From the NCBI RefSeq assembly GCF_055900595.2, contig NZ_CM148325.1: a stretch of DNA of 64,000 nucleotides. One strand, given 5' to 3'. Shown here piece after piece: positions 40,622 through 60,531 of this stretch. Numbering within the stretch: position 1 is the stretch's first letter; each line of letters begins with the position of its first letter. The notes beneath the pieces are model-generated. The model was not told the DNA's origin, ran no database searches, and worked only from the letters and a program-made list of their open reading frames with translations. Position numbers and translations under genes: made by a program.

Positions 40622-40930
40622 TTAATTAGCCACGGCAAAATTAAGAAGAGCTTGAATTTTATTCAAGTGTGCGGGATATTCCATGTCATTATCCGCATTG
40701 ACGTCTTCAATAAACAGTATTAATTCAGTGATCAAATCATTAGCATCTTCATAACTAATACCAGTCAGTTCTGGTGACGTTTGCGAGCCATAATTAATTG
40801 TCAGATTATTCATTACCGACAAAACCAGAATAAAATATTTGTGACATATATCGCAAGTTGTTCGGTTTCCTAAGGCATAGTACAGCATATTGAGCAATGC
40901 CAGTATTCGTCGATTTTGCACATCGTTCAT
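40622..40930 (-). CDS. hypothetical small protein (102 aa), third gene of a low-GC islet operon
   Basis: Intact ORF 9 bp downstream of the preceding gene; no recognisable family; AT-rich codon usage unlike the flanks. Confidence 0.5.
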   Translation of the reverse strand: MNDVQNRRILALLNMLYYALGNRTTCDICHKYFILVLSVMNNLTINYGSQTSPELTGISYEDANDLITELILFIEDVNADNDMEYPAHLNKIQALLNFAVAN

Positions 40931-40939
40931 AATGACCTC

Positions 40940-41296
40940 CTATAACATAACTCCGCTGGCAATAAGAAGTTTTGCCAGCTCCTCTGACGCCTGTAGACCA
41001 CTAATAAATTGAGAACGCAGGATCTCATTCCTACGCTCTAAATCCGCTTTAGAAAGAGATTTATTAGAGTATAAATCTTGTAGATGATTTCCTTTATCCA
41101 TGAAGGCATTAATAGCTTGTATTGCTGGAGCCGCCGGATCAGATGAACGCAATCTGCTTTCATTAAGATTAATTACTGCACTCAAAAATTCCTGTCTACT
41201 CTTTAATGTTTTAAATTCTATGTTTTTAGTATTTGCTCGGGCCTTATTATAGTAATAAAAATTATTGCTGATGTTCGCAAAATTATTCCAATCCAT
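40940..41296 (-). CDS. hypothetical small protein (118 aa), second gene of the islet operon
   Basis: Intact ORF 17 bp downstream of the lipoprotein gene; hydrophilic; no recognisable family. Confidence 0.5.
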   Translation of the reverse strand: MDWNNFANISNNFYYYNKARANTKNIEFKTLKSRQEFLSAVINLNESRLRSSDPAAPAIQAINAFMDKGNHLQDLYSNKSLSKADLERRNEILRSQFISGLQASEELAKLLIASGVML

Positions 41297-41313
41297 TTGC
41301 TGCTGTTTCGTTG

Positions 41314-41961
41314 CTATATCATCGAGTAAATCTTGTAAATTTCTTTGAAGTCGTGGCCAGTACTACCTACCGTTTTACCAACATTTTCTGATTTAATCTT
41401 CTCTTTATATAATCCATTGAAATATTGAACTAAATCTTTAACAGCTACAGCTGACTTAGTCAGTTCTTCACCTTCTGAAAGGCCAAGTAGTTTTTGGGCG
41501 TTGTTTGCATGATCGAGCGCCTGATTAAGTAATATAATTTGTTTACTATCGTCAACATCCATATCCACCGTCAACAACTCCACATAGGAGCTCATACTGT
41601 TAACGACCTCAAGTGAAGCCAGTAGCTTTTGTTTTTCTGTGGTTGCCAATTGAACTTTAGTAACGTCTTTATACGATGTTTTGTCCCCTTTCTCTGATTG
41701 CATACATAAGGACTCTTTATTAGTATTATTTTCCATAATCGTTTCATAATCAGGTCGCAATGCACAATCCGGATTAGCCGCATAAAAATTAACAAGGAAG
41801 TTTTCACGAGAAGCATAGTATTGTTTAAAGAAACTTGCATTCGCCGCAACCGCCTTGTTACCCGCAGTAATAACAGTTTCAGCTTGTTCATTTTTCAATG
41901 TTTCAGTTGCACAACCTGAAAGCATTAACAGCGATAGAAATAATCCACTATATCTAATCAT
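41314..41961 (-). CDS. hypothetical lipoprotein (215 aa), first gene of the islet operon
   Basis: Signal peptide with lipobox LSGC (MIRYSGLFLSLLMLSGCATE); AGGTGG RBS upstream of the ATG; low GC. Confidence 0.55.
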   Translation of the reverse strand: MIRYSGLFLSLLMLSGCATETLKNEQAETVITAGNKAVAANASFFKQYYASRENFLVNFYAANPDCALRPDYETIMENNTNKESLCMQSEKGDKTSYKDVTKVQLATTEKQKLLASLEVVNSMSSYVELLTVDMDVDDSKQIILLNQALDHANNAQKLLGLSEGEELTKSAVAVKDLVQYFNGLYKEKIKSENVGKTVGSTGHDFKEIYKIYSMI

Positions 41962-42130: not shown

Positions 42131-43006
42131 TTAACCGTTATTATTACGTCCACCAGAACGACGACCGCCGCTGACCTGGCTGTGACGTTTCACCGCACGA
42201 CGAATTTGATTCGCCTTCATACGACGACGGTCTTTTTCTACAGCAACTTTAGAGCTGGTTTCTGGCGGTAGTTCCACCAGCTCACGCAGATAGTTAGTCT
42301 GGGCAAGATCCAGCTCAGTCCAGCCACCGCGTGGCAGACCTTTCGGCAGTGGGATATCACCGTAACGCACGCGGATCAGACGGCTCACCTGCACACCAAC
42401 AGCTTCCCAAAGACGACGAACTTCACGGTTACGGCCTTCGGTCAGAGTAACGTTGTACCACTGGTTGATCCCTTCGCCGCCGCTGAACTTAATGGTTTTA
42501 AAGGCTGCCGGACCATCTTCCAGCTGCACGCCACGACTCAAATCACGCAGTTTCGCGTCGTCAACCTGACCAAATACACGCACGGCATATTCACGTTCAA
42601 CTTCACGGCTTGGGTGCATTAAACGGTTTGCCAGCTCACCGTCGGTGGTGAACAGCAGCAGACCACAGGTGTTAACGTCCAGACGACCTACGGCAATCCA
42701 GCGTGCGCCACGCAGCTTTGGCAGACGGTCAAATACCGTTGGACGCCCTTCCGGATCGTTACGGGTACACAACTCACCTTCCGGTTTGTAATAGGCCAGA
42801 ACGCGACAAATTTGTTCAGCGGACTCACGTACCGAAATCAGGTGACCATCGATACGGATTTTCAATCCAGGGGTAATTTCAACACGATCGCCGAGTTTAG
42901 CAATTTTGCCATCAACACTCACACGACCGGCTTCAATAATAGATTCGATTTCACGGCGAGAACCGTGGCCGGCACGCGCCAGCACTTTCTGTAGCTTTTC
43001 GCTCAT
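42131..43006 (-). CDS. rluB: 23S rRNA pseudouridine synthase
   Basis: 291 aa; S4 domain plus RsuA-family catalytic domain and basic C-terminal tail. Confidence 0.92.
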
Positions 43007-43218
43007 AGAGCTTCCTTTTGGTGTCGCCTTCCCAGGCGTCTGATATGCTTTTGTGCAACAATGAGTCAGAACTTACATCTGACTCACTGATAGTAAAGTC
43101 TGTTTGAACTCTCCTGGCCTTAAGTAAACGACTCGACGTTTTAACTGGCCTGGCTTTGAGGCGCAACATACTACACTATCTTTATGGTTAAAGCTTGTTT
43201 CGATTAACATAAGCTTTA

Positions 43219-45113
43219 TTACCAGCCACCACCGCCTCCGCCACCCGCACCGCCGCCAGCACCACCACCGGAATAGCTTCGCCCCAACAAACTGGTATTG
43301 GCCCCCAGACTCAGGTGCATCTGTAATGAAAACAAAACGCCACTACGGGCAATTTCCGGGGCGTGAACAGCCGCTGTGAGTGACGGCGTGATACGTGCTG
43401 CCCATTCTTTTCCAAGGTTTGCCGAGACTGCCCAACCTAGCAACGCGTAATCCAGTTTCCGTGTTTCCCCTTTCCGCCGACGCCCACTGTGTGTTGCTGC
43501 CTCTTTACGCGCAAGATAGTTAACGATAGCTTCACCGTGGGCATAACGTTGCTGCCCAGTTTGGGTAAACTTTGGCAGAAAAATATACCCCATGCCAGTG
43601 AGATAACCGGTCAGGAAAACAGCGCTAAAATAACCCGCAGGCATATACCAGTAAAAGAATACATCTCCGACATTGATGTAGAGAGAGTAAAAAGCCACAC
43701 CTGAACAAATCAGTGGTAAAAACAAAGTGATGATTACACGATTAACGCAAGGCTTGTCATCATCGCGTGCAAACAAAAGATCAAGGGAACAAAATAAAAA
43801 AGGAAGAAGCCAGCAGATCATAATAAACATATCGCCTACCAGACTCATTCCTGCCCAGCCTACGGGACTCAGGTTACCGTAGAGAATGACCGCCAATATT
43901 GCCATTCCGCCCCATTGCAAAAACGCATCAGGTCGGTAAAACGAAGACTTTTTACGCGGCAGATAAAATTTCTGCATCCGTAAAAATGCCCTGCGTAAGA
44001 CTCTGTTACGCCCCCCGTAAGAACGACCTTGTCGCCTTTACGAAATAACGTTTCCAGTAATATCTGCTCTGCGGGCAGTAATACCGCATTATTCCTGGTC
44101 GCACCTTCATTAACACGGATCAGGGTTTGCTGATTTTTGTCATACTGATCTTCCAGATGAATTTTTCCTTTCACAATCAGATTTACGATATCGGCACAAA
44201 AACCTTTATCGTCGTAAACCAGCTTCGCATCGAGACGTAACATTCCGGGCGTGTAATCTGGCGGAATGACATCGGTTTCAATCACATCTACCGGCGTAAA
44301 TTGCGGCCTGCGCTTCCAGAGATATAACCATCCACACGCCAGGAACAGACACGGAAACCAAATTAACAACGATGACGTAGAGGGTAAAAGAAGATGGCTG
44401 AAAATATTCGTCGTTTGTGGTGCCGGGGCATTACCAAGTAAAGCGTGAGGCCAGCGGTAGAGGACCGTGAAATCTTCACGATAAAACGGATCGCGGGATT
44501 CAATTCTTCCGTCCTCAAGGATGCGGCCATTTCGATATGTGTCGCCCTCTTCTCCGGTAAAGAGATCGATTTCGCTAAATGGATTACCCGCAATTTTAGA
44601 GAACTGGAGAGAAAATCGGGTCTTATAAATTTCAAACGGCCAGTTGTTACCGGTCACGTTCCAGATTAGCAGATCAGAATCCCCCTCACGCAGGAAAGCA
44701 TTTTTAACCTGATAATGAATTTGATAATGATAGTCGCCCTGAGGCAAGAAACGTTGTTTATCGCCCACGACAATGCTCATTAACCCGATATGCCAGTCAA
44801 GATGCCAGGGTTCAGGAACGCCGTCACGGGTGACGCCAACAATACGATAGTTCAGCACTGCTGCGTCCCCATCAGGCTGCATCCAGAGTCGTGGTAAATC
44901 ACGATAAAATCCGTGCTTAATCTGCTGATTTCGCGCCTGAAAATGAATGTTCTCTTTGATGTCGAGCACCCCATCCAGTTGCAGGGTGGCTTCAACATCA
45001 AAGAGCGAGATCCCTTCTTCATAAAAAGGGATCTCCGTGTTTTTCGCATAACTCAACGAAGAGAAAAAAAGCCCAACTATCAACAGCAAAATGCAGCGAA
45101 ACTTCCCTGCCAT
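43219..45113 (-). pseudogene. yciQ: yciQ-like membrane protein gene, frameshifted (or sequencing error)
   Basis: Two overlapping minus-strand ORFs (414 aa, 43869..45113, and 252 aa, 43219..43977) span 1895 nt, one base short of the 1896 nt needed for the 631-aa K-12 product I recall; a C6 homopolymer at 44011-44016 lies just upstream of the shift interval (43869..43977). Confidence 0.6.
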
Positions 45114-45140
45114 AGTCTTCCATCCGTGGAACGCAATTTG

Positions 45141-45761
45141 TTATAAGAAAGGCTTTACATCACCTACGCCTTCACGTATCACGACTGGCGTATCATCGGT
45201 AAGATCGATAACTGTTGTCGGTTTCTGTCCGAGATAGCCACCGTGAATAATCAAATCCACCTGTTTTTCCAGACGGTCTTTAATCTCTTCCGGATCAGAT
45301 TCGGTAAATTCGCTGCCCGGCAGCATCAGTGATGTGGAAAGCATCGGTTCGCCCAATGCTTCAAGCAACGCCTGCGCAATCGGGTTAGAAGGCACACGCA
45401 TACCGATGGTTTTGCGTTTTTCCTGTAGCAGACGGCGCGGCACTTCTTTCGTCCCTTTCAGAATGAAGGTGTAGTTACCCGGCGTGTTGTTTTTCATCAA
45501 ACGAAACGCAACGTTATCGACAAATGAATAGGTCGAGAGTTCAGAAAGATCGCGACACATCAGGGTAAAGTTGTGACCGTCCGGCAGCTGGCGAATACGA
45601 CAAATACGCTCCATGGCGTTTTTATCTTCAATTTTACAGCCGAGCGCATAGCCGGAATCAGTTGGATAAACAATCACCCCGCCTTTACGCACGATCTCCA
45701 CCGCCTGGTTGATCAGACGTTGCTGCGGGTTATCAGGATGAATATAAAAAAACTGGCTCAT
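45141..45761 (-). CDS. yciO: Sua5/YciO/YrdC-family dsRNA-binding protein
   Basis: ORF trimmed to MSQFFYIHPDNPQQRL..., 206 aa. Confidence 0.88.
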   Translation of the reverse strand: MSQFFYIHPDNPQQRLINQAVEIVRKGGVIVYPTDSGYALGCKIEDKNAMERICRIRQLPDGHNFTLMCRDLSELSTYSFVDNVAFRLMKNNTPGNYTFILKGTKEVPRRLLQEKRKTIGMRVPSNPIAQALLEALGEPMLSTSLMLPGSEFTESDPEEIKDRLEKQVDLIIHGGYLGQKPTTVIDLTDDTPVVIREGVGDVKPFL

Positions 45762-46639
45762 AATTCCCTCTCTGTGGTGTTCTGCGGCTGTTCCCATAGC
45801 TGCCAGACGCCTTCAACGCCTGCGGGCAGCCAGAGTTTACGACCCAGTTCGATCCACGGACATGGCTGATGAAAATCAGATCCTTGTGATGCCCATAAAT
45901 GATGCTGACGCGCAAGTGTCGCCAGCTGGGTGCGTTCATTGGGCGATTGCTGGCACTGCGCGACTTCCATCGCGTCGCCGTGGTGTTCGGCAAAATGCGC
46001 AACCAATCTTTTCAGCCATTTAGCACTAAGATTGTACCGCCCAGGATGAGCTAGCACCGCCTTACCGCCAGAATGATGAATGACATCAATAGCTTGTTCT
46101 ATTGTACACCACTGTGGCGGAACGTATCCGGTTTTCCCGCGCGCCAGATATTTTTTAAAGATATCCGCCATTGAACTGGCTTTGCCACATTCAACCAAGA
46201 AACGAGCAAAATGACCGCGCGTCACCGCACCGCCCTGCGCCAGTCGTTGCGCGCCTTCCAGCGCCCCAGGTATTTGCGCTTTTTCCAGTCTTTCAGCAAT
46301 TAACTTCGCCCGCTGATTGCGCCGTTCTGTCTGCTGCGCGAGGAACTCACACATTAGCGGATGAGTAATATCAATATTCAGCCCGACAATATGAATTTCA
46401 TGATTTTCCCAGACGGTGGATATTTCCACGCCAGGAATAAGATTCAGTGCCAGTCCTGAACGTGAAATTTCTTCTCTTGCTGGCGCGATTGCCGCTGTGG
46501 TGTCATGGTCGGTGATCGCCAGGGTGCCGACGCGCATCTCGACTGCACGGTGCACCAATGCTTCTGGCGTCAGGCAGCCATCGGAAGCTGTGGTATGGCT
46601 GTGCAGGTCATAAATCACTGCGTAATTCGTGTCGCTCAA
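45758..46639 (-). CDS. trpH: PHP-domain 5-prime-3-prime exoribonuclease/phosphoesterase
   Basis: PHP motif YDLHSHTTASDG; a start at TTG 46639 gives 293 aa; the upstream ORF extension would overrun the trp promoter. Confidence 0.8.
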   Translation of the reverse strand: MSDTNYAVIYDLHSHTTASDGCLTPEALVHRAVEMRVGTLAITDHDTTAAIAPAREEISRSGLALNLIPGVEISTVWENHEIHIVGLNIDITHPLMCEFLAQQTERRNQRAKLIAERLEKAQIPGALEGAQRLAQGGAVTRGHFARFLVECGKASSMADIFKKYLARGKTGYVPPQWCTIEQAIDVIHHSGGKAVLAHPGRYNLSAKWLKRLVAHFAEHHGDAMEVAQCQQSPNERTQLATLARQHHLWASQGSDFHQPCPWIELGRKLWLPAGVEGVWQLWEQPQNTTEREL

Positions 46640-46713
46640 GGCGCACTCCCGTTTTGGATAATGTTTTTGCGCCGACATCATAACGGTTCTGGCAAATATT
46701 CTGAAATGAGCTG

Positions 46714-46748
46714 TTGACAATTAATCATCGAACTAGTTAACTAGTACG
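46714..46748 (+). promoter_or_regulatory. trp promoter with TrpR operator
   Basis: TTGACA (46714-46719), TTAACT -10 (46737-46742), operator palindrome cgaactagttaactagtacg matching the textbook trp promoter/operator. Confidence 0.9.
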
Positions 46749-46775
46749 CAAGTTCACGTAAAAAGGGTATCGACA

Positions 46776-46820
46776 ATGAAAGCGATTTTCGTACTGAAAG
46801 GTTGGTGGCGCACTTCCTGA
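46776..46820 (+). CDS. trpL: trp operon leader peptide
   Basis: atgaaagcgattttcgtactgaaaggttggtggcgcacttcctga encodes [14 protein letters not shown] with tandem Trp codons. Confidence 0.92.
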
Positions 46821-46862
46821 AACGGGCAGTGTATTCACCATGCGTAAAGCAACCAGATACCC

Positions 46863-46890
46863 AGCCCGCCTAATGAGCGGGCTTTTTTTT
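46863..46890 (+). terminator. trp attenuator
   Basis: agcccgcctaatgagcgggc hairpin followed by T8. Confidence 0.9.
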
Positions 46891-46911
46891 GAACAAAATT
46901 AGAGAATAACA

Positions 46912-48474
46912 ATGCAAACACAAAAACCGACTCTCGAACTGTTAACCTGCGAAGGTGCTTATCGCGATAATCCGACCGCGCTTTTTCATCAGTTGTGTGG
47001 GGATCGTCCGGCAACGCTGCTGCTGGAATCCGCAGATATCGACAGCAAGGATGATTTAAAAAGCCTGCTGCTGGTGGACAGTGCGCTGCGCATTACAGCA
47101 TTAGGTGACACTGTCACTATTCAGGCACTTTCCGGCAATGGCGAAGCTCTGCTGGCATTACTGGATAACGCCCTGCCTGCGGGTGTGGAAAATGAACAAT
47201 CACCAAACTGCCGCGTGCTGCGCTTCCCTCCTGTCAGTCCATTGCTGGATGAAGACGCCCGCTTATGCTCCCTTTCGGTTTTTGACGCTTTCCGCTTATT
47301 GCAGAATCTGTTGAATGTACCGAAGGAAGAACGGGAAGCGATGTTCTTTGGCGGCCTGTTCTCTTATGACCTTGTGGCGGGGTTTGAAGATTTACCGCAA
47401 CTGGCAGCGGAAAATAACTGCCCTGATTTCTGTTTTTATCTCGCTGAAACGCTGATGGTTATCGATCATCAGAAAAAAAGTACCCGTATTCAGGCCAGCC
47501 TGTTTGGTCAAAATGAAGAAGAAAAACAACGTCTCACTGCTCGCCTGAACGAACTTCGCCAGCAACTGACCGAAACCGCGCCACCGCTGCCGGTAGTTTC
47601 CGTGCCGCATATGCATTGTGAATGTAATCAGAGCGATGAAGAGTTCGGTGGCGTAGTGCGTTCGTTGCAAAAAGCGATTCGCGCCGGAGAAATTTTCCAG
47701 GTCGTGCCATCTCGCCGTTTCTCGCTGCCCTGCCCGTCACCGCTGGCGGCCTATTACGTGCTGAAAAAGAGTAATCCCAGCCCATACATGTTTTTTATGC
47801 AGGATAATGATTTCACCCTGTTTGGTGCGTCGCCGGAAAGTTCGCTCAAGTATGACGCCACCAGCCGCCAGATTGAGATCTACCCGATTGCCGGAACACG
47901 TCCACGAGGACGTCGCGCCGATGGTTCACTGGACAAAGACCTCGACAGCCGCATTGAACTGGAGATGCGTACCGACCATAAAGAGCTTTCTGAACATCTG
48001 ATGCTGGTGGATCTCGCCCGAAATGACCTTGCGCGCATTTGCACTCCTGGCAGCCGCTACGTTGCCGATCTGACCAAAGTTGACCGTTACTCTTACGTGA
48101 TGCATCTCGTCTCCCGCGTGGTCGGTGAGCTGCGCCACGATCTTGACGCCCTGCACGCTTACCGCGCCTGTATGAACATGGGTACGTTAAGCGGTGCCCC
48201 GAAAGTGCGCGCCATGCAGTTAATTGCCGAAGCGGAAGGTCGTCGACGCGGCAGCTACGGCGGTGCGGTAGGTTATTTCACCGCACATGGCGATCTGGAC
48301 ACCTGCATTGTCATCCGTTCGGCGCTGGTGGAAAACGGTATCGCCACCGTGCAAGCCGGTGCTGGCGTAGTCCTTGATTCTGTTCCGCAGTCGGAAGCCG
48401 ACGAAACCCGTAATAAAGCCCGCGCTGTACTGCGCGCTATCGCCACCGCGCATCATGCACAGGAGACTTTCTGA
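46912..48474 (+). CDS. trpE: anthranilate synthase component I
   Basis: 520-aa chorismate-binding enzyme translation; first structural gene after the attenuator. Confidence 0.95.
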
Positions 48475-50069
48475 TGGCTGACATTCTGCTGCTCGATAAT
48501 ATCGACTCTTTTACTTATAACCTGGCAGATCAGTTGCGCAGCAATGGACATAACGTGGTGATTTACCGCAACCATATCCCAGCGCAAACATTAATTGAAC
48601 GTCTGGCGACCATGAGCAATCCGGTGCTGATGCTTTCTCCTGGCCCCGGAGTGCCGAGCGAAGCCGGTTGTATGCCGGAACTCCTCACCCGCTTGCGCGG
48701 CAAGCTGCCAATTATCGGCATTTGCCTCGGTCATCAGGCGATTGTCGAAGCTTACGGGGGCTATGTCGGTCAGGCGGGCGAAATTCTTCACGGTAAAGCG
48801 TCGAGCATTGAACATGATGGTCAGGCGATGTTTGCCGGATTAACAAACCCGCTGCCAGTGGCGCGTTATCACTCGCTGGTTGGCAGTAATATTCCGGCCG
48901 GTTTAACCATCAACGCCCATTTTAATGGCATGGTGATGGCGGTGCGTCATGATGCGGATCGCGTTTGTGGATTCCAGTTCCATCCGGAATCCATTCTCAC
49001 CACCCAGGGCGCTCGCCTGCTGGAACAAACGCTGGCCTGGGCACAACAGAAGCTGGAGCCGACCAACACACTGCAACCAATTCTGGAAAAACTGTATCAG
49101 GCGCAGACGCTTAGCCAACAAGAAAGCCACCAGCTGTTTTCAGCGGTGGTGCGTGGCGAGCTGAAACCGGAACAACTGGCGGCTGCATTGGTCAGCATGA
49201 AAATTCGCGGCGAGCACCCGAACGAAATCGCCGGGGCAGCAACTGCCCTTCTGGAAAATGCTGCGCCGTTCCCACGCCCTGATTATCTGTTTGCCGATAT
49301 CGTCGGCACCGGCGGTGACGGCAGCAACAGTATCAATATTTCTACCGCCAGTGCGTTTGTCGCCGCTGCCTGTGGGCTGAAAGTGGCGAAACACGGTAAC
49401 CGCAGCGTCTCCAGTAAATCCGGCTCGTCGGATCTGCTGGCGGCATTCGGTATTAATCTTGATATGAACGCCGATAAATCGCGCCAGGCGCTGGATGAGT
49501 TAGGCGTCTGTTTCCTCTTTGCGCCGAAATATCACACCGGATTTCGCCATGCGATGCCGGTTCGCCAGCAACTGAAAACCCGCACCCTGTTCAACGTGCT
49601 GGGGCCACTGATTAACCCGGCGCATCCGCCGCTGGCGCTAATTGGTGTCTACAGCCCGGAACTGGTGCTGCCAATTGCCGAAACCTTGCGCGTGCTGGGG
49701 TATCAACGCGCAGCGGTGGTGCACAGCGGGGGGATGGATGAAGTTTCATTACACGCGCCGACAATCGTTGCCGAACTGCATGACGGCGAAATTAAGAGCT
49801 ATCAGTTGACCGCTGAAGATTTTGGCCTGACACCCTACCATCAGGAGCAACTGGCAGGCGGAACACCGGAAGAAAACCGTGACATTTTAACACGCTTGTT
49901 ACAAGGTAAAGGCGACGCAGCCCATGAAGCAGCTGTCGCGGCGAATGTCGCCATGTTAATGCGCCTGCATGGCCAGGAAGATCTGCAAACCAATGCGCAA
50001 ACCGTTCTTGAGGTACTGCGCAGTGGTTCCGCTTACGACAGAGTCACCGCACTGGCGGCACGAGGGTAA
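48474..50069 (+). CDS. trpD: anthranilate synthase component II / anthranilate phosphoribosyltransferase
   Basis: 531 aa; glutamine amidotransferase N-terminal domain fused to phosphoribosyltransferase; TGATG overlap with trpE. Confidence 0.95.
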
Positions 50070-51431
50070 ATGATGCAAACCGTTTTAGCGAAAATCGTCG
50101 CAGACAAGGCGATTTGGGTAGAAGCCCGCAAACAGCAGCAACCGCTGGCCAGTTTTCAGAATAAGGTTCAGCCGAGCACGCGACATTTTTATGATGCGCT
50201 ACAGGGTGCACGCACGGCGTTTATTCTGGAGTGCAAGAAAGCGTCGCCGTCAAAAGGCGTGATACGTGATGATTTCGATCCGGCACGCATTGCCGCCATT
50301 TATAAGCATTACGCTTCGGCAATTTCTGTACTGACTGATGAGAAATATTTCCAGGGGAGCTTTGATTTCCTCCCCATCGTCAGCCAAATCGCCCCGCAAC
50401 CGATTTTATGTAAAGACTTTATTATCGACCCTTACCAGATCTATCTGGCGCGCTATTACCAGGCCGATGCCTGTTTATTAATGCTGTCGGTGCTGGACGA
50501 CGATCAGTATCGCCAGCTCGCTGCTGTAGCCCACAGTCTGGAGATGGGCGTGCTGACCGAAGTCAGTAATGAAGAGGAGCTGGAGCGCGCCATTGCATTG
50601 GGAGCAAAAGTCGTTGGCATTAACAACCGCGATCTGCGTGATTTGTCGATTGATCTTAACCGTACCCGCGAGCTTGCGCCGAAACTGGGGCACAACGTGA
50701 CGGTAATCAGCGAATCCGGCATCAATACTTACGCCCAGGTGCGTGAGTTAAGCCACTTCGCTAACGGCTTTCTGATTGGTTCGGCGCTAATGGCCCATGA
50801 TGATTTGAACGCCGCCGTGCGCCGGGTGTTGCTGGGTGAGAATAAAGTGTGTGGTCTGACGCGTGGGCAAGATGCTAAAGCAACTCATGACGCGGGCGCG
50901 ATTTACGGTGGATTGATATTTGTTACAACGTCACCCCGTTGCGTCAGCGTTGAACAGGCGCAGGAAGTGATGGCTGCGGCACCGTTGCAATACGTTGGCG
51001 TGTTCCGCAATCACGATATTGCCGATGTGGTGGACAAAGCTAAGGTGTTATCGCTGGCGGCAGTGCAACTGCATGGTAATGAAGATCAGCTGTATATCGA
51101 CACTCTGCGTGAGGCTCTGCCAGCAAACGTCGCCATCTGGAAGGCTTTAAGTGTCGGTGAAACTCTTCCCGCGCGCGATTTTCAGCACATCGATAAATAT
51201 GTATTCGACAACGGTCAGGGCGGGAGCGGACAACGTTTCGACTGGTCACTGTTAAACGGTCAATCGCTTGGCAACGTTCTGCTGGCGGGTGGCTTAGGCG
51301 CAGATAACTGCGTGGAAGCGGCACAAACCGGCTGCGCCGGGCTTGATTTTAATTCTGCTGTAGAGTCGCAACCGGGCATCAAAGACGCACGTCTTTTGGC
51401 CTCGGTTTTCCAGACGCTGCGCGCATATTAA
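50070..51431 (+). CDS. trpC: indole-3-glycerol phosphate synthase / phosphoribosylanthranilate isomerase
   Basis: 453-aa bifunctional translation. Confidence 0.95.
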
Positions 51432-51442
51432 GGAAAGGAACA

Positions 51443-52636
51443 ATGACAACATTACTTAACCCGTATTTTGGTGAGTTTGGCGGCATGTACGTGCCACAAA
51501 TCCTGATGCCTGCTCTGCGCCAGCTGGAAGAAGCTTTTGTCAGCGCGCAAAAAGATCCTGAATTTCAGGCCCAGTTCAACGACCTGCTGAAAAACTATGC
51601 CGGGCGCCCAACCGCGCTGACCAAATGTCAGAACATTACAGCCGGCACTAACACTACGCTGTATCTGAAGCGTGAAGATTTACTGCACGGTGGCGCGCAT
51701 AAAACTAACCAGGTGCTCGGTCAAGCTTTACTGGCGAAGCGGATGGGTAAAACTGAAATCATTGCCGAAACCGGTGCAGGTCAGCATGGCGTGGCTTCTG
51801 CGCTTGCCAGCGCCCTGCTCGGCCTGAAATGCCGTATTTATATGGGTGCCAAAGACGTTGAACGCCAGTCGCCTAACGTTTTTCGTATGCGCTTGATGGG
51901 TGCGGAAGTGATCCCGGTGCATAGCGGTTCCGCGACGCTGAAAGATGCCTGTAACGAGGCGCTACGCGACTGGTCCGGCAGTTATGAAACCGCGCACTAT
52001 ATGCTGGGCACTGCAGCTGGCCCGCATCCTTACCCGACCATTGTGCGTGAGTTTCAGCGGATGATTGGCGAAGAAACGAAAGCGCAGATTCTGGAAAGAG
52101 AAGGTCGTCTGCCGGATGCCGTTATTGCTTGTGTTGGCGGCGGTTCGAATGCCATCGGCATGTTTGCTGATTTCATCAACGAAACCGACGTCGGGCTGAT
52201 CGGCGTGGAGCCTGGTGGTCACGGTATCGAAACTGGCGAGCACGGCGCACCGTTAAAACATGGTCGCGTGGGCATCTATTTCGGTATGAAAGCGCCAATG
52301 ATGCAAACCGAAGACGGGCAGATTGAAGAATCTTACTCGATTTCTGCCGGACTGGATTTCCCGTCAGTCGGCCCGCAACACGCTTATCTCAACAGCATTG
52401 GACGCGCTGATTATGTGTCAATCACCGATGATGAAGCTCTGGAAGCCTTCAAAACGCTGTGCCTGCACGAAGGGATTATCCCGGCGCTGGAATCCTCCCA
52501 CGCGCTGGCCCACGCACTGAAAATGATGCGCGAAAACCCGGAAAAAGAGCAGCTACTGGTGGTTAACCTTTCCGGTCGCGGCGATAAAGACATCTTCACC
52601 GTTCACGATATTTTGAAAGCACGAGGGGAAATCTGA
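51443..52636 (+). CDS. trpB: tryptophan synthase beta chain
   Basis: 397 aa; PLP-enzyme translation. Confidence 0.95.
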
Positions 52637-53442
52637 TGGAACGCTATGAATCTCTGTTTGCCCAACTGAAGGAGCGCAAAGAAGGCGCATTCGTTCCTTT
52701 CGTCACCCTCGGTGATCCGGGCATTGAGCAGTCGCTGAAAATTATCGATACGCTAATTGAAGCCGGTGCTGACGCGCTGGAGTTAGGTATCCCCTTCTCC
52801 GACCCACTGGCAGATGGTCCGACGATTCAAAACGCCACACTGCGTGCTTTTGCGGCGGGAGTAACCCCGGCGCAGTGCTTTGAGATGCTGGCACTCATTC
52901 GCCAGAAGTACCCGACCATTCCGATCGGCCTTTTGATGTATGCCAACCTGGTGTTTAACAAAGGCATTGATGAGTTTTATGCCCAGTGCGAAAAAGTCGG
53001 CGTCGATTCGGTGCTGGTTGCCGATGTGCCCGTGGAAGAGTCTGCGCCCTTCCGCCAGGCCGCGTTGCGCCATAATGTCGCACCTATCTTTATTTGCCCG
53101 CCGAATGCCGACGAGGATTTGCTGCGCCAGATTGCCTCTTATGGCCGTGGTTACACCTATTTATTGTCGCGTGCGGGCGTGACCGGAGCTGAAAACCGCG
53201 CCGCGTTACCTCTCAATCATCTGGTTGCGAAGCTGAAAGAGTACAACGCTGCGCCTCCATTGCAAGGATTTGGTATTTCCGCCCCGGATCAGGTAAAAGC
53301 AGCGATTGATGCAGGAGCTGCGGGCGCGATTTCTGGTTCGGCAATTGTTAAAATCATCGAGCAACATATTAATGAGCCAGAGAAAATGCTGGCGGTACTG
53401 AAAGCTTTTGTACAACCGATGAAAACAGCGACGCGCAGTTAA
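52636..53442 (+). CDS. trpA: tryptophan synthase alpha chain
   Basis: 268 aa; overlaps the trpB stop. Confidence 0.95.
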
Positions 53443-53449
53443 TCCCACA

Positions 53450-53476
53450 GCCGCCAGTTCCGCTGGCGGCATTTTA
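53450..53476 (+). terminator. trp operon terminator
   Basis: gccgccag ttcc gctggcggc hairpin followed by atttt, just after the trpA stop. Confidence 0.8.
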
Positions 53477-53822
53477 ACTATCTTTAATGAAGCAGGAAAA
53501 ATCCTAAATTCATTTATTATTTATCTTTTTACCGTTTCGCTTACCCCTGACGTACGTCAACTTACGTCATTTTTCCGCCCAAAAGTAATATAATCAAACA
53601 AATTAATCCCGCAACAAAACACTACTAAAATCAATAATTTTCTCTAACCCACTTATTTCTTGGGTATTTATGAATATATCGAAAGTTTTTTTCAAAATAT
53701 ATTTTTCACATTCCTTCTCACTTTGCTCAATTTGACTAATCCTCATTACCGACTAATTTTAATGAGTGTCGACACACAACACTCATATTTATGAAACAAT
53801 ACAACGCAACGGGAGAAATAAC

Positions 53823-54002
53823 ATGGCCGAACATCGTGGTGGTTCAGGAAATTTCGCCGAAGATCGTGAGAAGGCATCAGACGCAGGCCGTAAAGGCGGT
53901 CAACACAGCGGCGGTAATTTTAAAAATGATCCGCAACGCGCATCCGAAGCGGGTAAAAAAGGCGGTCAGCACAGCGGTGGAAATAAATCAGGAAAATCCT
54001 GA
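53823..54002 (+). CDS. yciG: KGG-repeat general stress protein
   Basis: ORF trimmed to MAEHRGGSGNFAEDREKASDAGRKGGQHSGGNFKNDPQRASEAGKKGGQHSGG..., 59 aa. Confidence 0.8.
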   Translation: MAEHRGGSGNFAEDREKASDAGRKGGQHSGGNFKNDPQRASEAGKKGGQHSGGNKSGKS

Positions 54003-54093
54003 TCCGCCGTTAATTATTAATATCAGCTGACGTTGATAAAGATAATTGCATCTGCGGGCCGTATGGCTCGCAGTGATTTCACTGGAGAAAAAT

Positions 54094-54594
54094 ATGAATA
54101 TGAAGTCCATTGAAGATGTATTTATTCACCTGCTTTCAGACACCTACAGTGCAGAAAAACAATTAACACGGGCACTAGCAAAACTCGCCAGAGCAACATC
54201 AAACGAAAAATTAAGTCAGGCTTTTCATGCACACCTCGAGGAAACTCATGGACAGATTGAACGTATTGATCAAGTTGTGGAGTCCGAATCGAACCTGAAA
54301 ATTAAGCGCATGAAATGTGTGGCAATGGAAGGTCTCATTGAAGAAGCTAATGAGGTCATCGAAAGCACCGAGAAAAACGAAGTGCGTGATGCCGCACTGA
54401 TTGCCGCTGCACAGAAAGTCGAGCACTATGAGATCGCCAGTTACGGGACCTTAGCGACGCTGGCTGAACAATTAGGTTATCGTAAAGCAGCGAAGCTTCT
54501 GAAAGAAACCCTGGAAGAAGAAAAGGCCACCGACATCAAATTGACTGATCTGGCCCTTAATAACGTAAATAAGAAAGCCGAAAATAAAGCCTGA
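54094..54594 (+). CDS. yciF: DUF892/ferritin-like stress protein
   Basis: ORF trimmed to MNMKSIEDVFIHLLSDTY..., 166 aa. Confidence 0.85.
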   Translation: MNMKSIEDVFIHLLSDTYSAEKQLTRALAKLARATSNEKLSQAFHAHLEETHGQIERIDQVVESESNLKIKRMKCVAMEGLIEEANEVIESTEKNEVRDAALIAAAQKVEHYEIASYGTLATLAEQLGYRKAAKLLKETLEEEKATDIKLTDLALNNVNKKAENKA

Positions 54595-54639
54595 AATATG
54601 AACTTTAACTTTTAGTCATTTTATAAAGAGGACATTTTC

Positions 54640-55146
54640 ATGAATCGTATTGAACATTATCATGACTGGTTACGTGACGCCCACGCAATGGAAAAGCAAG
54701 CCGAATCTATGCTTGAATCCATGGCCAGCCGCATAGATAATTATCCTGAGCTACGCGCTCGTATTGAACAACATCTTAGTGAAACCAAAAACCAGATTGT
54801 ACAACTGGAAACTATTCTTGATCGTAATGACATTTCACGCTCAGTCATTAAAGATTCTATGAGTAAAATGGCTGCACTTGGGCAGTCAATCGGTGGTATA
54901 TTCCCTTCTGATGAAATAGTCAAAGGCTCTATTAGCGGATATGTCTTCGAGCAATTTGAAATCGCCTGTTATACCTCACTCTTAGCAGCAGCAAAAAATG
55001 CCGGTGATACAGCCTCAATTCCGATTATCGAAGCGATTTTAAATGAGGAAAAGCAAATGGCCGACTGGCTGATTCAGCATATTCCGCAAACAACGGAGAA
55101 ATTTTTAATTCGCTCTGAAACTGATGGCGTAGAAGCGAAGAAATAA
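54640..55146 (+). CDS. yciE: DUF892/ferritin-like stress protein
   Basis: 168-aa YciF paralogue immediately downstream. Confidence 0.85.
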   Translation: MNRIEHYHDWLRDAHAMEKQAESMLESMASRIDNYPELRARIEQHLSETKNQIVQLETILDRNDISRSVIKDSMSKMAALGQSIGGIFPSDEIVKGSISGYVFEQFEIACYTSLLAAAKNAGDTASIPIIEAILNEEKQMADWLIQHIPQTTEKFLIRSETDGVEAKK

Positions 55147-55170
55147 TACCCTTTATACCATGTCCTTATT

Positions 55171-55196
55171 GACCCCGTAATTACGGGGTCATTTTT
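55171..55196. terminator. bidirectional terminator between yciE and the ompW remnant
   Basis: gaccccgtaa / ttacggggtc perfect hairpin followed by atttttg. Confidence 0.75.
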
Positions 55197-55204
55197 GTGC
55201 GGAA

Positions 55205-55321
55205 TTAAAAACGATATCCTGCTGAGAACATAAACACCCACGGATCAAGACGTACGCTATCGTGTTGCTGCGCACCACCCAGCTTATAATTTGCGGTGGT
55301 GTCAATATCCATGTACCAGAC
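55205..55321 (-). pseudogene. ompW: 3-prime fragment of ompW (last ~38 codons)
   Basis: Reverse-strand translation ...VWYMDIDTTANYKLGGAQQHDSVRLDPWVFMFSAGYRF-stop matches the OmpW C-terminus as I recall it; no upstream ompW sequence beyond about 55321. Confidence 0.8.
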
Positions 55322-55660
55322 TGGCAGGTTTTAAAAAATCAAATAAGATATTGTATCTGAAAGAAAAAACAGGATTTTGAGATGCTTTTTTATACCGTTT
55401 TTCAGCGTTTTTAACTGCCTGATTTTATTGAAATCTTTTTTAGTTTTGCAGAAAGGATTTTTTGATCGATTGCTTTAATTTTATACATTCCTGATAACGG
55501 AAATTTTTTACCCGTTGACAGTTTTTATCCTCCGGGGCTATATTTCCAACGCGTCAGCAAAATCTGGCGTCGGGATTGGAACCCCGGATGTTTACGGAGC
55601 GATATGAGACGCGCCCGCGTCTTTTTTCATATCGTTTGCACAGTCACATTCGCGATTTAT

Positions 55661-55737
55661 GGCGGGCTGTGTGGGGGAGCCGAAAGGCTCGCCGGTTTCC
55701 GTACCCGGTAGTTCCAACCCCGCACAGTTCGCCACCA
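55661..55737 (+). other. structured element 1 (tRNA/tmRNA-3-prime-like, ends CCACCA)
   Basis: 77 nt; 13-bp outer stem GGCGGGCTGTGTG / CGCACAGTTCGCC (with G-U pairs) enclosing a GAGCC-GAAA-GGCTC hairpin; shares a 26-nt core with element 2. Confidence 0.4.
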
Positions 55738-55791
55738 TGATGATTGGAACCTGAAGGTGGCGATAATTTTCAAATGTACGGAGTTATCGTT

Positions 55792-56352
55792 ATGCCCACT
55801 CAAATTTCTGTCGACACTCTTCCTGCAATCACCCACAACCAGGTCCCCGTTATTACAACTGAACTTCTGGCGCAGTTATACGGAACAAAAATCAAAAACA
55901 TTTCTGATAACTTTCTGAACAACACGACGCGATTCGTGGTAGGAAAGCATTACTTTAAAATTGAAAAAAACGAATTACGCGAGTTTAAGAACAGACCCGA
56001 AACAATCGGGTTAGTTGGTAAAAATGCCCGCTCCCTTATCCTCTGGACAGAACGTGGCGCAGCCCGCCATGCCAAAATGCTCGAAACCGATCAGGCATGG
56101 GAAGTGTTCGAAAAACTGGAAGACTGTTATTTCAGCCAAAAACAACCACCAGCAACACAAAACTCACCCACCCCAAATGATGGATGCGCATTACTGATCC
56201 ACTTTGATAAACACGGTCAGGTAGAGTTCACAGAAAAAGTCCCCGCCGATGCGATGGTATGCACTCTGGAACGGTTTAAATTTTATCTGGAGCAACACGG
56301 CTGGCTCGTTGCCCGTAAAGAACAACTGGTGGAAAGGCTGATGCAGCTTTAG
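55792..56352 (+). CDS. phage antirepressor-like protein with N-terminal ORF6N/KilA-N-type domain
   Basis: Start taken at the ATG with GGAG RBS; translation ...VPVITTELLAQLYGTKIKNISDNFLNNTTRFVVGKHYFKIEKNELREF... resembles ORF6N-family phage proteins. Confidence 0.6.
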   Translation: MPTQISVDTLPAITHNQVPVITTELLAQLYGTKIKNISDNFLNNTTRFVVGKHYFKIEKNELREFKNRPETIGLVGKNARSLILWTERGAARHAKMLETDQAWEVFEKLEDCYFSQKQPPATQNSPTPNDGCALLIHFDKHGQVEFTEKVPADAMVCTLERFKFYLEQHGWLVARKEQLVERLMQL

Positions 56353-56402
56353 CAGATATAACAAGTGTTTTTTCTCGTATGCACGCGCACATATGAATTA
56401 TT

Positions 56403-56459
56403 GTGGGGCGCATGGGGGAGCCGAAAGGCTCGCCGGTTCAACTCCCGCCAGCTCCACCA
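56403..56459 (+). other. structured element 2 with ssrA (tmRNA) 3-prime-end-like sequence
   Basis: Core tgggggagccgaaaggctcgccggtt shared with element 1; last 25 nt GGTTCAACTCCCGCCAGCTCCACCA match my recollection of the tmRNA 3-prime terminus; followed by a T5 run. Confidence 0.45.
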
Positions 56460-56584
56460 TTTTTGACAGGACTGCAACCGGACATCGACAATAAAAACAG
56501 ATAATTACGGACACTGACCAGACAACAAACAGACCTGAACAAGACAAAAATATACACGTGAAATGCACGTGCACTTTATAAAAA

Positions 56585-56612
56585 CCCCAGATTTCACAGT
56601 CTGGGGTTTTTC
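56585..56612 (+). terminator. rho-independent terminator
   Basis: ccccagatttcacagtctgggg hairpin followed by ttttt. Confidence 0.6.
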
Positions 56613-56665
56613 TGTTTGTAAATAATGGTAACAAAAACACATCACCTTTTGGCGTTCCGTTCCTC

Positions 56666-56715
56666 TTGACACTGTTTATCCATACAGTTAAAAATAACAC
56701 TGTATACAAACACAG
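56666..56715 (+). promoter_or_regulatory. promoter with LexA (SOS) box upstream of the dinI-like gene
   Basis: TTGACA at 56666-56671, AT-rich -10 near 56689-56695, CTGT-N8-ACAG box ctgtatacaaacacag at 56700-56715, about 15 bp before the start codon. Confidence 0.65.
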
Positions 56716-56730
56716 TGTAGAGGGATTTTT

Positions 56731-56979
56731 ATGCGTATTGAAATCTGTATCGCTAAAGAAAAATTCAGTAAAATGCCAAAAGGCTCTGTACCTGCTCTAC
56801 AACAGGAAATGTCTAGCCGTATCAGAAAACGATATGACGATGTGGAGGTTATAGTAAAATCCGCCAGTAATGACGGACTGACCATTTTAAGAGCCGTAGA
56901 TAAAGAAAACGCTCAGAAGTTCATACAGGAAACGCTGCAGGAAGTCTGGGAAACTGCTGATGACTGGTTTTTTCACTAA
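56731..56979 (+). CDS. DinI-family DNA-damage-inducible protein (prophage-borne)
   Basis: 82 aa; [16 protein letters not shown]...[14 protein letters not shown] resembles DinI (MRIEV...WESADDWF); GAGGG RBS. Confidence 0.75.
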
Positions 56980-57362
56980 TCAGGACGTCAAATAAATAAC
57001 AACTGTAATTATTCTCTCCAAATTAACAATCTCTGTATACATACTCAGGCGTGTTCACGCATACAACACGCCTTTCTGATATTTAATTGTTTACAGAAAT
57101 ATTGCCGAATAAAAATATAAACCATAGTCTTAAAAAAATAATAATTCCACTATAGCTATCCCAGAACAACCAGTACAAATAATAAAAGACATATCACAGC
57201 AACACTCCACACTGACAGCGCAAAAATAAATGCCGCCTTTGTTATCTTCATATACAAGCAACCTGTCCTGATAATCACCAACTCATGTTTTATTCTTAAC
57301 CATTCGTCACAAATACAACAAAAAATAACAGCAGCAGCACCGATATCACAATATAAGATACA

Positions 57363-57818
57363 TTATTCAACACCTGAATCCCCCGCCGCTTCTCTCCCCT
57401 TTATAAAACGCCCCTTCCGGAATCCAGACCGCTGCAGTGCACGACGAAGATGACCGTATACCGTCTTGTCATTCTGCCCCGTCTCTTCTGTAATCTCCGC
57501 AATACTTAAACCTCTGTAATACCGGTTCAGTACCGCTCTGCGCTCTTCCAGCGTCAACACACCTCCGGCCGCTCTCAGATTCATCATCGACTTATTCAGA
57601 ATACAGCAGGCCTCTCCGGTAAAAAGAATACGAACAATATCTGTATACTCATCATCACAGAATACAAAATAATATCTGAATGACCTGCCTGACTGCACCC
57701 TTCTTCTGTCTGATATGGCATCTTCTATATATCTGATTCGACTGCTTACGGTTCCAAATATCTCTCGCAGGGCTTTTTCAAAATAAATATCTCTCGTCGC
57801 CAGGATTATATCCAGCAT
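57363..57818 (-). CDS. putative HTH regulator with sigma-70 region-4/LuxR-like C-terminus
   Basis: 151 aa; C-terminal LTLEERRAVLNRYYRGLSIAEITEETGQNDKTVYGHLRRALQR fits the region-4 HTH pattern; N-terminal part unassigned. Confidence 0.4.
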   Translation of the reverse strand: MLDIILATRDIYFEKALREIFGTVSSRIRYIEDAISDRRRVQSGRSFRYYFVFCDDEYTDIVRILFTGEACCILNKSMMNLRAAGGVLTLEERRAVLNRYYRGLSIAEITEETGQNDKTVYGHLRRALQRSGFRKGRFIKGREAAGDSGVE

Positions 57819-57836
57819 CTCTGTACCTCATTATAT

Positions 57837-57856
57837 CCCGGGGGACTCCCCCCGGG
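57837..57856 (-). terminator. GC-rich hairpin between the adhesin gene and the downstream regulator gene
   Basis: cccgggggactccccccggg inverted repeat; no clear U-run, so it may be an attenuator or processing structure rather than a terminator. Confidence 0.35.
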
Positions 57857-57879
57857 ACAGATATCTAAATCCTGACCTG

Positions 57880-59520
57880 TCAGAACTCAAAATTCACACC
57901 AGCATTCCACGATGCGGATGACCCACCTGCAGCAACTGCAACTTTTCCTGCCACATTCTCTGTGAAACGGTAGCCCACGCCCACCGCAATGGCCTGCTCA
58001 TCACGGTAACCACCAACGGCTGCTGTCGCGTTAAATTTTCCAACACTGTATGGCTGGAAAAGACCGGCCAGTGCCGCGCTCTGGGCTGCACTCTCCCTTA
58101 ACTCCTTCCGGTTCTCTTTAATCTGCTCCTGCATATTATTCATTCTCTCTGTCGCCATCTTCTGCCAGGCTTCCGTCAAATCCAGACGATGACTGTTATT
58201 CCTTATCGCTGCTGTATTTGAGGCTATTGCTGCATCCGTCTGCGCCACCGCTGCCGATGTGACTGCAATAATATCCCTGCTGAGTTCATCACGTACTGCT
58301 GTAACCTGACTGTCAGTATGAGCACGGGCATCTCTGTATACACCGCCTATCTCACCACGCAGACTGTCTCCCTCTGCCTTCAGTTCATCACGTACTGCTG
58401 TGACCTGACTGTCAGTATGAGCACGGGCATCTCTGTATACACCACCTATCTCACCACGCAGACTGTCTCCCTCTGCCTTCAGTTCATCACGTACTGCTGT
58501 GACCTGACTGTCAGTATGAGCACGGGCATCTCTGTATACACCGCCTATCTCACCACGCAGACTGTCTCCCTCTGCCTTCAGTTCATCACGTACTGCTGTG
58601 ACCTGACTGTCAGTATGAGCACGGGCATCTCTGTATACACCACCTATCTCACCACGCAGACTGTCTCCCTCTGCCTTCAGTTCATCACGTACTGCTGTGA
58701 CCTGACTGTCAGTATGAGCACGGGCATCTCTGTATACACCGCCTATCTCACCACGCAGACTGTCTCCCTCTGCCTTCAGTTCATCACGTACTGCTGTGAC
58801 CTGACTGTCAGTATGAGCACGGGCATCTCTGTATACACCACCTATCTCACCACGCAGACTGTCTCCCTGTGATTTCACTTCAACCCCAAGGTTGCGGGTA
58901 CGATTATCCAGCTCCACGACGAATTCTTTAACAGGGACTGTCTGAGCATTTCCGTCAGCCCTTCCGTCAGCAGTGATTCGGCCTGATGAATCCAGAACAA
59001 AATTCTGGCCTTCAACTACATTTTTATACAATGATGACAATCCCGATGTTGTATTACTAATTTTAATAAAATCCTCAGCGGTACCACCAGCATTAACAGC
59101 GGCGATATAATCATCCTTGTTTTCTGGCTTGATTATTTTTTGTAGTGATTCTTTTGTATCAACAATGGACTTTATATCTTCTGCTTTTATATTTCTGATG
59201 TTTTCGGCTTTTAATGCATCTGAGTAGATGGGGTAAGTTAGCAAATCCTGAGCAACAATATGCCTAGCATTCTCAGGAGCTGCTAATATAGCACGCGTAA
59301 TAGAATCATTCGGGACAATACGCCCTGTATTAGCTCCAGTAATAGTATTAATAAGATTAACATCATTACCTTTTGATATTACTGCCGCACCATTATCATA
59401 CAGAGTAACCTCATATCCATCTACATTAAAACTCTCTTCTGCCATAACCCCCACAGAGTAACATAACAGCGCACCGGTAACCGCCATTGCCAATACATTC
59501 TTTGCCATTATAAATTTCAT
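57880..59520 (-). CDS. YadA-like trimeric autotransporter adhesin (Eib-like), prophage-encoded
   Basis: 546 aa; signal peptide; C-terminus [62 protein letters not shown] matches the YadA membrane anchor; coiled-coil stalk with six 33-aa repeats. Confidence 0.8.
58285..58875. repeat. six tandem copies of a 99-bp unit inside the adhesin gene
   Basis: Near-identical 99-bp units encoding [33 protein letters not shown]; successive copies alternate a synonymous ccgcc/ccacc difference, so the array is effectively 3 x 198 bp. Confidence 0.9.
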
Positions 59521-59955
59521 ATGGTATATCCTGTTAAGAAGATTAAACTGTAACCCCCCCTGAATAAGCAGGCGAGATTCTTTTCCAGGATACCTTTCAG
59601 AGTCACCACTGCATTGATTTTAACAATCAATACAGTTAACATGGAATTATAGGATAAATGCACCCCGATAAAACAATATGAGCGTTCTTGTCCCCATATG
59701 TCAGCAGAGCATTCAGATATAGCTGTCAGAATAACCGTTTCCTACATCAGTCATTCATCACAGACTCAATTGTGAATCAGTTCACCTTTTTTGCAATTCC
59801 TTTATTGATCGAAAGCAGTTAATCACAGAAATTAATTACCGGAGTGAAAGCATTTGCTATGTAAACATTCCCAGAAGACATCTTCATGTTGAATATTATT
59901 CCCTTATTGACTACACCCCTCTGACAGAATTTTCAGAGGGGTTTTTTTATCAGTT

Positions 59956-60531
59956 TCACCATCCAACCCTGTACGCCAGAATGGTTTCACTGTCACTCAG
60001 TTCTGCTATTGCCTTTTTCATCTCCCTTTGCCTTATATGTATTTCAAGGCCTTTCCTGAACATCGCTTTACCAGCAGCATCACTCAGGGATATCAGTTCA
60101 TCTGCCGTCATCGGTACATCATTATTCTCTGCGTCCGTCCAGAAAAATCCTTCCGGCAACACACCGCCTCTGGCCGCTGATGCCGACATTCCAAGACGTG
60201 TCATGGCTTCCTTTCCATAATCCCATTTCCGTCCTCTGTGCTCAAAAACATACCCTGACGCCTCCATCGCATCACGCCAGGCATTTATCTCCGCGTTTTT
60301 CATCCTGCGTGCTTCTTCCACAGCCATATCATCATTTGCCCGGTACTCACCTACCGGCCCTGCATCACCTCTTATGCAGGCTTCAAATATTTCACGACCG
60401 TAAGACTCAGGATCATCCGCACTTGCTGTAAATACACATTCTGTTTCCGCGTCTGAAAACTTCACTATACAGTTTATGGTCGTATGACCCCTGTCAGCCC
60501 ACACTGGTGACGTGATTTTATCGACCTTCAT
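59956..60531 (-). CDS. putative phage tail-fibre assembly chaperone
   Basis: 191-aa ORF immediately downstream of the tail-fibre gene (15-bp gap); pattern resembles DUF4376-type chaperones; assignment is mainly by position. Confidence 0.45.
   Translation of the reverse strand: MKVDKITSPVWADRGHTTINCIVKFSDAETECVFTASADDPESYGREIFEACIRGDAGPVGEYRANDDMAVEEARRMKNAEINAWRDAMEASGYVFEHRGRKWDYGKEAMTRLGMSASAARGGVLPEGFFWTDAENNDVPMTADELISLSDAAGKAMFRKGLEIHIRQREMKKAIAELSDSETILAYRVGW

Follow-up and report, generated by a model that had tools for sequence, protein, structure and literature searches.

A close described counterpart of the locus reported here is yciQ of Escherichia coli K-12, whose product (b1268; WP_001326916.1) is a predicted inner-membrane protein of the DUF2207 family, encoded at the same yciO-yciQ-rluB locus as in the 64,000-nucleotide stretch of DNA that we analysed (hereafter, the window). 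In annotated E. coli genomes, yciO and rluB flank one yciQ gene, 1896 nt (631 aa) long, and this is the length of the intact gene in both K-12 MG1655 and MS 21-1. Intact open reading frames (ORFs) of 1896 nt are likewise present in cM8a and E. whittamii, and one of 1884 nt is present in Escherichia sp. MOD1-EC7003. No established function for YciQ was found in the literature on yciQ and DUF2207. One paper lists the protein as a "transcriptional regulator", a role unsupported by its membrane-protein domain architecture, and the single experimental study of DUF2207 that we found deals with biofilm and the tolerance of stress by Streptococcus mutans (PMC10457818).

In strain engineering, the yciQ locus serves as a neutral integration site (PMC11943725). 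Among 5426 complete E. coli genomes, approximately 1450 (~27%) have no match to yciQ, and yciO and rluB are present in 5422. Strain NT1N25 (NZ_CP075484.1), for example, has a gap of 100 nt between yciO and rluB with nothing annotated in it. With such clean absences, a gene that is usually counted as core is commonly polymorphic for presence/absence. Elsewhere the gene is present and damaged: SCU-171 carries an independent yciQ frameshift (G5 to G4 at gene nt 1809, corresponding to ~43305-43309 of the window) that the PGAP annotation labels "frameshifted", E. coli B (strain C3029) has an IS1 inserted in yciQ, and O157:H7 has a 527-aa form of YciQ, consistent with an internal deletion. A second class of known system, homopolymer contingency loci subject to slipped-strand phase variation, occurs in Neisseria, Haemophilus, and Campylobacter, and homopolymer phase variation is uncommon in the genus Escherichia.

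Judged by nucleotide identity, the window is assigned to the Escherichia cryptic clade I lineage and not to E. coli sensu stricto. Its sequence is near-identical to that of cryptic clade I genomes, and its identity to E. coli yciQ alleles is only 94-98%, which overturns the assumption of a K-12-like E. coli made when the DNA was first interpreted from its letters alone (the sequence-only reading). The best identity among the 5426 complete E. coli genomes was 98.6% within yciQ and 98.0-98.3% for queries that included flanking DNA, and the trp region beside yciQ (e.g. 45200-60000) had ~90-96.6% identity to complete E. coli genomes. The trp region also includes a stretch with a YadA-like adhesin gene that is present in just a few genomes, and the low identity of the region together with this rare gene fits a cryptic clade I origin.

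At the yciQ locus, the window holds two overlapping minus-strand ORFs of 414 and 252 aa that together span 1895 nt (Table 1). The sequence-only reading had described both correctly, and its count of one base short of the 631-aa frame also stands (1895 nt vs 1896 nt in K-12 MG1655 and MS 21-1). The gene order yciO-yciQ-rluB is that annotated in K-12, MS 21-1, and Z0117EC0005, with a spacer of 27 nt between yciO and yciQ. Because one added G restores a stop-free 631-aa protein with Pfam matches, the ORF pair is a real feature and not a chance ORF pattern.

Table 1. Features of the yciQ locus in window coordinates, with the evidence for each.
Feature	Position	Strand	Evidence
First ORF, 414 aa	43869..45113	-	ORF listing; same product on 334 contigs
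Second ORF, 252 aa	43219..43977	-	ORF listing
yciQ, very probably a pseudogene (DUF2207 family), 1895 nt	43219..45113	-	alignment, Pfam, yciO-yciQ-rluB synteny
Frameshift site, coding-strand G6 (C6 on the plus strand)	44011..44016	-	alignments; four independent assemblies
Nearest upstream stop in the frame of the second ORF	44038..44040	-	
Putative recombination patch, gene nt 1634-1784	43330..43480	-	substitution clustering
yciO, intact, upstream neighbour	45141..45761	-	
rluB, intact, downstream neighbour	42131..43006	-	

Two other features of the surroundings were observed. Within the 5' coding part of yciQ, a terminator-like scan flagged a 13-pair inverted repeat (GAGATCCCTTTTT ATG AAGAAGGGATCTC, G-T pairs allowed) at 45007-45035 on the minus strand, and such terminator-like hits were no more numerous in the region than in shuffled sequences. 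Between rluB and cobO/btuR lies a low-GC island (40622-41961, minus strand; 34-38% GC vs ~50% in the flanks) with three small ORFs (215, 118, and 102 aa), none of which has a Pfam match; the 215-aa ORF begins with a hydrophobic segment ending in LSGC that, by eye, resembles a lipoprotein signal. In NT1N25, cobO directly follows rluB, in place of the island found in the window. The island counterpart gene is annotated by PGAP as a frameshifted hypothetical protein in Z0117EC0005 and is truncated beside an IS1 in MS 21-1.

Alignment of the window with yciQ of MS 21-1, cM8a, K-12, MOD1-EC7003, and E. whittamii, in which the gene is one uninterrupted frame, placed the indel inside the G6/C6 homopolymer itself, the sole frame-changing difference from the intact alleles. 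Intact E. coli alleles read GGGGAGACGC at this site (ACG GGG AGA CGC AAC, or T-G-R-R-N, of which ACG GGG AGA CGC are codons 366-369). The window instead reads ACGGGGGGCGTAAC, with a GGGGGG-CGT tract and one base missing within codons 367-369 relative to K-12. With a seventh G, it would read ACG GGG GGG CGT AAC (T-G-G-R-N) and encode a stop-free protein of 631 aa. The uninterrupted G run followed by CGT is common to the window lineage and a sister lineage described below. The sequence-only reading was right to suspect the homopolymer, but it confined the frame change to 43869..43977 and so left the C6 run just upstream of the interval. These bounds were too narrow: the frame of the second ORF stays open upstream as far as the stop listed in Table 1, and the admissible interval is 43869..44037, which includes the run.

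The first ORF comprises native YciQ residues 1-368 followed by 46 out-of-frame residues. It contains the signal/transmembrane (TM) segment, the periplasmic DUF2207 N domain (residues 35-175), a TM segment at ~240-267, and the start of DUF2207_C. The frameshift at residue 368 costs the final 263 residues, including most TM helices, and the second ORF corresponds to native residues 380-631, with the remaining TM helices and a Gly-rich tail. A hydropathy scan placed the N-terminal signal/TM segment and one TM segment (~240-267) ahead of the break and the most strongly hydrophobic segments (418-483) beyond it. Pfam family PF09972 (DUF2207 N-terminal) matched the first ORF at residues 35-175 with 78.5 bits (cut-off 24.4 bits). 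PF20990 (DUF2207_C) matched the one-base-repaired protein at residues 284-572, across the junction, with 36.7 bits against a cut-off of 33 bits, vs a sub-threshold 21.9 bits for the unrepaired first ORF, and the second ORF alone had no Pfam match. The repaired 631-aa protein is 97.2% identical to an intact YciQ, and no second disabling lesion was found in the window yciQ besides the one-base loss.

Since the break falls at residue 368, it cuts one domain (PF20990) in two and does not separate two modules. This argues against a gene that is split but functional, in which the 414-aa product and/or a separately translated C-terminal fragment would still give YciQ function, a reading that we regard as unlikely. 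Neither the native start nor the sequence before it nor the spacer to yciO has changed, so the N-terminal 414-aa product is probably made; with the signal sequence, a complete periplasmic N domain, and one TM segment, it may conceivably keep some residual activity. For the C-terminal half, gene callers do predict a downstream ORF, and the sequence-only reading had suggested that a membrane fragment might be made from the retained ATG. That suggestion found no support: ATG 43977 lies within the first ORF and lacks an upstream Shine-Dalgarno match (best duplex -3.1 kcal/mol, 11 nt away). The next in-frame ATG, at 43905, also lies inside the first ORF, and a third, at 43848, lies just past its stop. 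At the later in-frame ATGs picked by gene callers, G-rich stretches abut the start (spacing 0), and a scan of 42900-45900 detected no promoter-like site on this strand, hence none ahead of the second ORF. With neither Shine-Dalgarno nor promoter support, separate translation of the second ORF was rejected; by these predictions the ORF is probably not translated on its own.

A homopolymer sequencing error was the other option raised by the sequence-only reading, in which case the true genome would have G7 and an intact yciQ. The lesion does lie in a homopolymer, where long-read and pyrosequencing errors classically arise, but a run of six G's is easily short enough for Illumina to read accurately. 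G6 was present in all of four independent assemblies (4/4), some of them Illumina-based, that are separated from the window by 1-4 SNPs over 7245 nt: an NCBI draft, the complete chromosome AP025754.1, an ENA SPAdes contig at 36x, and a Logan assembly of SRR22784964. One of the four bears the locus tags of strain KS-P079. NCBI, ENA, and Logan together contribute 334 contigs (402 index blocks) with the exact 414-aa product, and the exact C-terminal sequence of the window, called by gene callers from later starts, was found with 209 aa on 304 contigs and with 228 aa on 19. Among these records, BDI50752.1 (locus tag EsCd1KSP079_01648, strain KS-P079), filed under Escherichia sp. KS167_9B, is the exact 414-aa product, and BDI50753.1 (EsCd1KSP079_01649) is the adjoining C-terminal remnant. 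KS-P079, of bovine origin, belongs to cryptic clade I and is an STEC/ETEC hybrid; MiSeq and MinION reads were combined in the hybrid assembly that finished its genome (PMC10100065). We also looked up, by exact sequence, the hypothetical products of G5-G10 tracts in both allele backgrounds. The window allele occurred as G5, G7, G8, G9, or G10 in none of ~15 billion public proteins, nor was its R368 precursor found among them; the truncated product is widespread, and the G7 product is absent from the entire collection. A sequencing artefact is effectively refuted and can be set aside for practical purposes, the chance of a true G7 genome being close to nil.

The locus is very probably a genuine, lineage-fixed, and evolutionarily young yciQ pseudogene in an Escherichia cryptic clade I lineage. 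The recent pseudogene proposed by the sequence-only reading is supported: related isolates share the shift, with the same G6 tract and 414-aa product lineage-wide in many independent assemblies, a second lesion is absent, and PGAP calls the sister gene "frameshifted". In the sequence of events that we favour, two A>G substitutions, or one A>G substitution and loss of the remaining A, would have fused the interrupted G run into a homopolymer, and replication slippage would then have left the tract one base short, at G6 instead of the in-frame G7. An in-frame precursor (G368 or R368) is present nowhere in the protein collection, and the substitutions and the deletion may have come in more than one order. 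As read from the normal start, the native frame holds to residue 368, changes midway through DUF2207_C, and gives way to 46 unrelated residues before a stop, leaving the 252-aa downstream ORF as a presumed remnant and not a second gene. Loss of yciQ is presumably tolerated because the gene is dispensable, having been repeatedly deleted or broken across E. coli. The finding is an ordinary one, and public annotation already shows the yciQ lesion.

Among complete genomes, the allele nearest to that of the window differs from it by 25 substitutions in 1.9 kb and is carried by 8. This sister allele has an uninterrupted run of nine G's and the same wrong frame and truncation point as the window, from which it differs in tract length (G9 vs G6) and by a 6-nt deletion in the Gly-rich tail. 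It is identical among the three genomes fetched (isolates from Korea, Japan, and Mali), and the label "frameshifted" is given by PGAP in 3/3 annotations read (Z0117EC0005, AST85, and E200086, of the 8 carriers). The Gly-rich C-terminal tail (GGGAGGGAGGGGGGGW, 43222-43270), encoded by GGT/GGC repeats, differs in length among alleles more generally, with 12 nt deleted in MOD1-EC7003. By exact lookup, the sister tract was G9 on 58 contigs, G8 on 2, and G10 on 2. The G10 product, read on 5 contigs, is an in-frame, full-length protein of 630 aa (HAW4998465.1). Two G10 loci (L013 and L014) and a G8 locus (L016) have 5-kb flanks identical to those of G9 genomes, and a third G10 locus (L015) is a metagenome scaffold with structural differences that is not comparable in register. 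The G8/G9/G10 polymorphism may be either real slippage variation or short-read assembly noise. The short G6 tract of the window is stable, unlike the longer sister tract. A species-level genome scan with the 414-aa ORF returned only two loci (MOD1-EC7003 and E. whittamii), both intact, which were used as outgroups and added no tract variants.

Tract polymorphism among sister isolates with identical 5-kb flanks is what would be expected of regulated recoding or phase variation, whether by slipped-strand ON/OFF switching, transcriptional slippage, or -1 frameshifting on G_GGG_GGC, any of which would yield full-length YciQ in a subset of cells or in small amounts. In addition, G6 and G9 are in the same frame, correctable by a -1 shift, and G_GGG_GGC formally matches the X_XXY_YYZ pattern. 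The shared wrong frame could hint at a functional requirement, as opposed to shared ancestry or coincidence. Nonetheless, we give this reading very little weight. As a switch, it is at odds with the lack of any length variant in the window lineage over hundreds of contigs and with a run of six G's that is too short for appreciable slippage, and assembly noise could account for the rare G8/G10 calls, which come from short-read assemblies. As recoding, it is very unlikely, and programmed frameshifting was rejected: in the local fold predicted (z = -2.3) the G run is itself paired, and no hairpin forms at the proper spacing of 5-9 nt downstream; the sequence downstream of the tract is identical in intact alleles and so did not evolve as a stimulator; the frameshift is not conserved, K-12, MS 21-1, MOD1-EC7003, and E. 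whittamii all being in frame; and the sister lineage includes in-frame and other-frame variants. Heptamers composed of G alone are not known to be efficient slippery sites in E. coli.

Substitutions between the window and the G9 sister allele are clustered, with 13 of the 25 in a 150-nt patch (43330-43480) where the window is closer to MS 21-1 and the sister to MOD1-EC7003, a pattern that points to recombination with intact yciQ alleles. Pairwise dN/dS between window and sister downstream of the shift gave an omega of 0.14, which we rejected as a sign of function; it is an artefact, given that 13 of the 16 downstream differences fall within this patch. When changes were polarised, the shared stem had 4 nonsynonymous and 13 synonymous changes, consistent with strong purifying selection. 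The sister branch had 6 nonsynonymous and 3 synonymous changes, including A23P in the signal region, and is compatible with neutrality and different from the stem (Fisher p = 0.046); the counts for all branches are small and are confounded by the recombination patch. This neutral appearance of the sister branch counts against a split but functional gene, as does the dispensability of the entire yciQ gene in nature. The window branch, at 3 nonsynonymous to 5 synonymous changes, has no nonsynonymous excess, and both within-lineage SNPs in the window yciQ are synonymous in the ancestral frame, two points that favour retained function in the split gene. A branch with no signal of relaxed selection fits a recent event and equally fits continued constraint, and the numbers were too small for the polarised counts to date the lesion on the window branch. 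Taken together, the absent second lesion and the branch counts point to a young lesion on this branch, as proposed for the pseudogene, but fall short of proof that all function is gone.

The significance of the pseudogene reaches little beyond annotation, and the sister G8/G9/G10 polymorphism is its only mildly interesting angle. Pairs of "hypothetical proteins" such as EsCd1KSP079_01648/01649 would be better merged as one yciQ pseudogene. The G6 lesion cleanly marks a large sublineage of cryptic clade I, with STEC/ETEC-hybrid strains among its members. It is also one more case of recurrent natural yciQ loss, supporting the view that the DUF2207 protein is dispensable in many niches.

Compared with the contingency loci of other genera, the clade I alleles are alike in that the length of a coding poly-G tract decides whether a full surface or membrane protein is made, the sister allele having both ON (G10) and OFF (G8, G9) states. 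One may speculate that fusion of G4-A-G-A into an uninterrupted G run gave a membrane protein of cryptic clade I a nascent slipped-strand switch de novo, with the sister allele flipping between OFF and ON and the G6 tract of the window contracted, nearly locked OFF, and revertible by a +1 slip. If true, the birth of a contingency locus would have been caught in the act, but we hold this to be improbable. What sets the G6 tract of the window apart from known contingency loci is its shortness, its constancy over hundreds of assemblies, and its recent formation out of interrupted sequence, with no evidence of selection for switching. Compared with K-12 YciQ, the repaired window product has the same length (631 aa), the same two domains (PF09972 and PF20990), and 94.1% protein identity; K-12 YciQ is intact, whereas the window copy encodes residues 1-368 plus an out-of-frame tail. 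The yciQ lesions of other E. coli (deletion, the SCU-171 frameshift, the IS1 insertion, and the 527-aa form) lie at different positions, and none has the G-run change of the window, but like it they are cases in which this dispensable gene was independently inactivated or lost.
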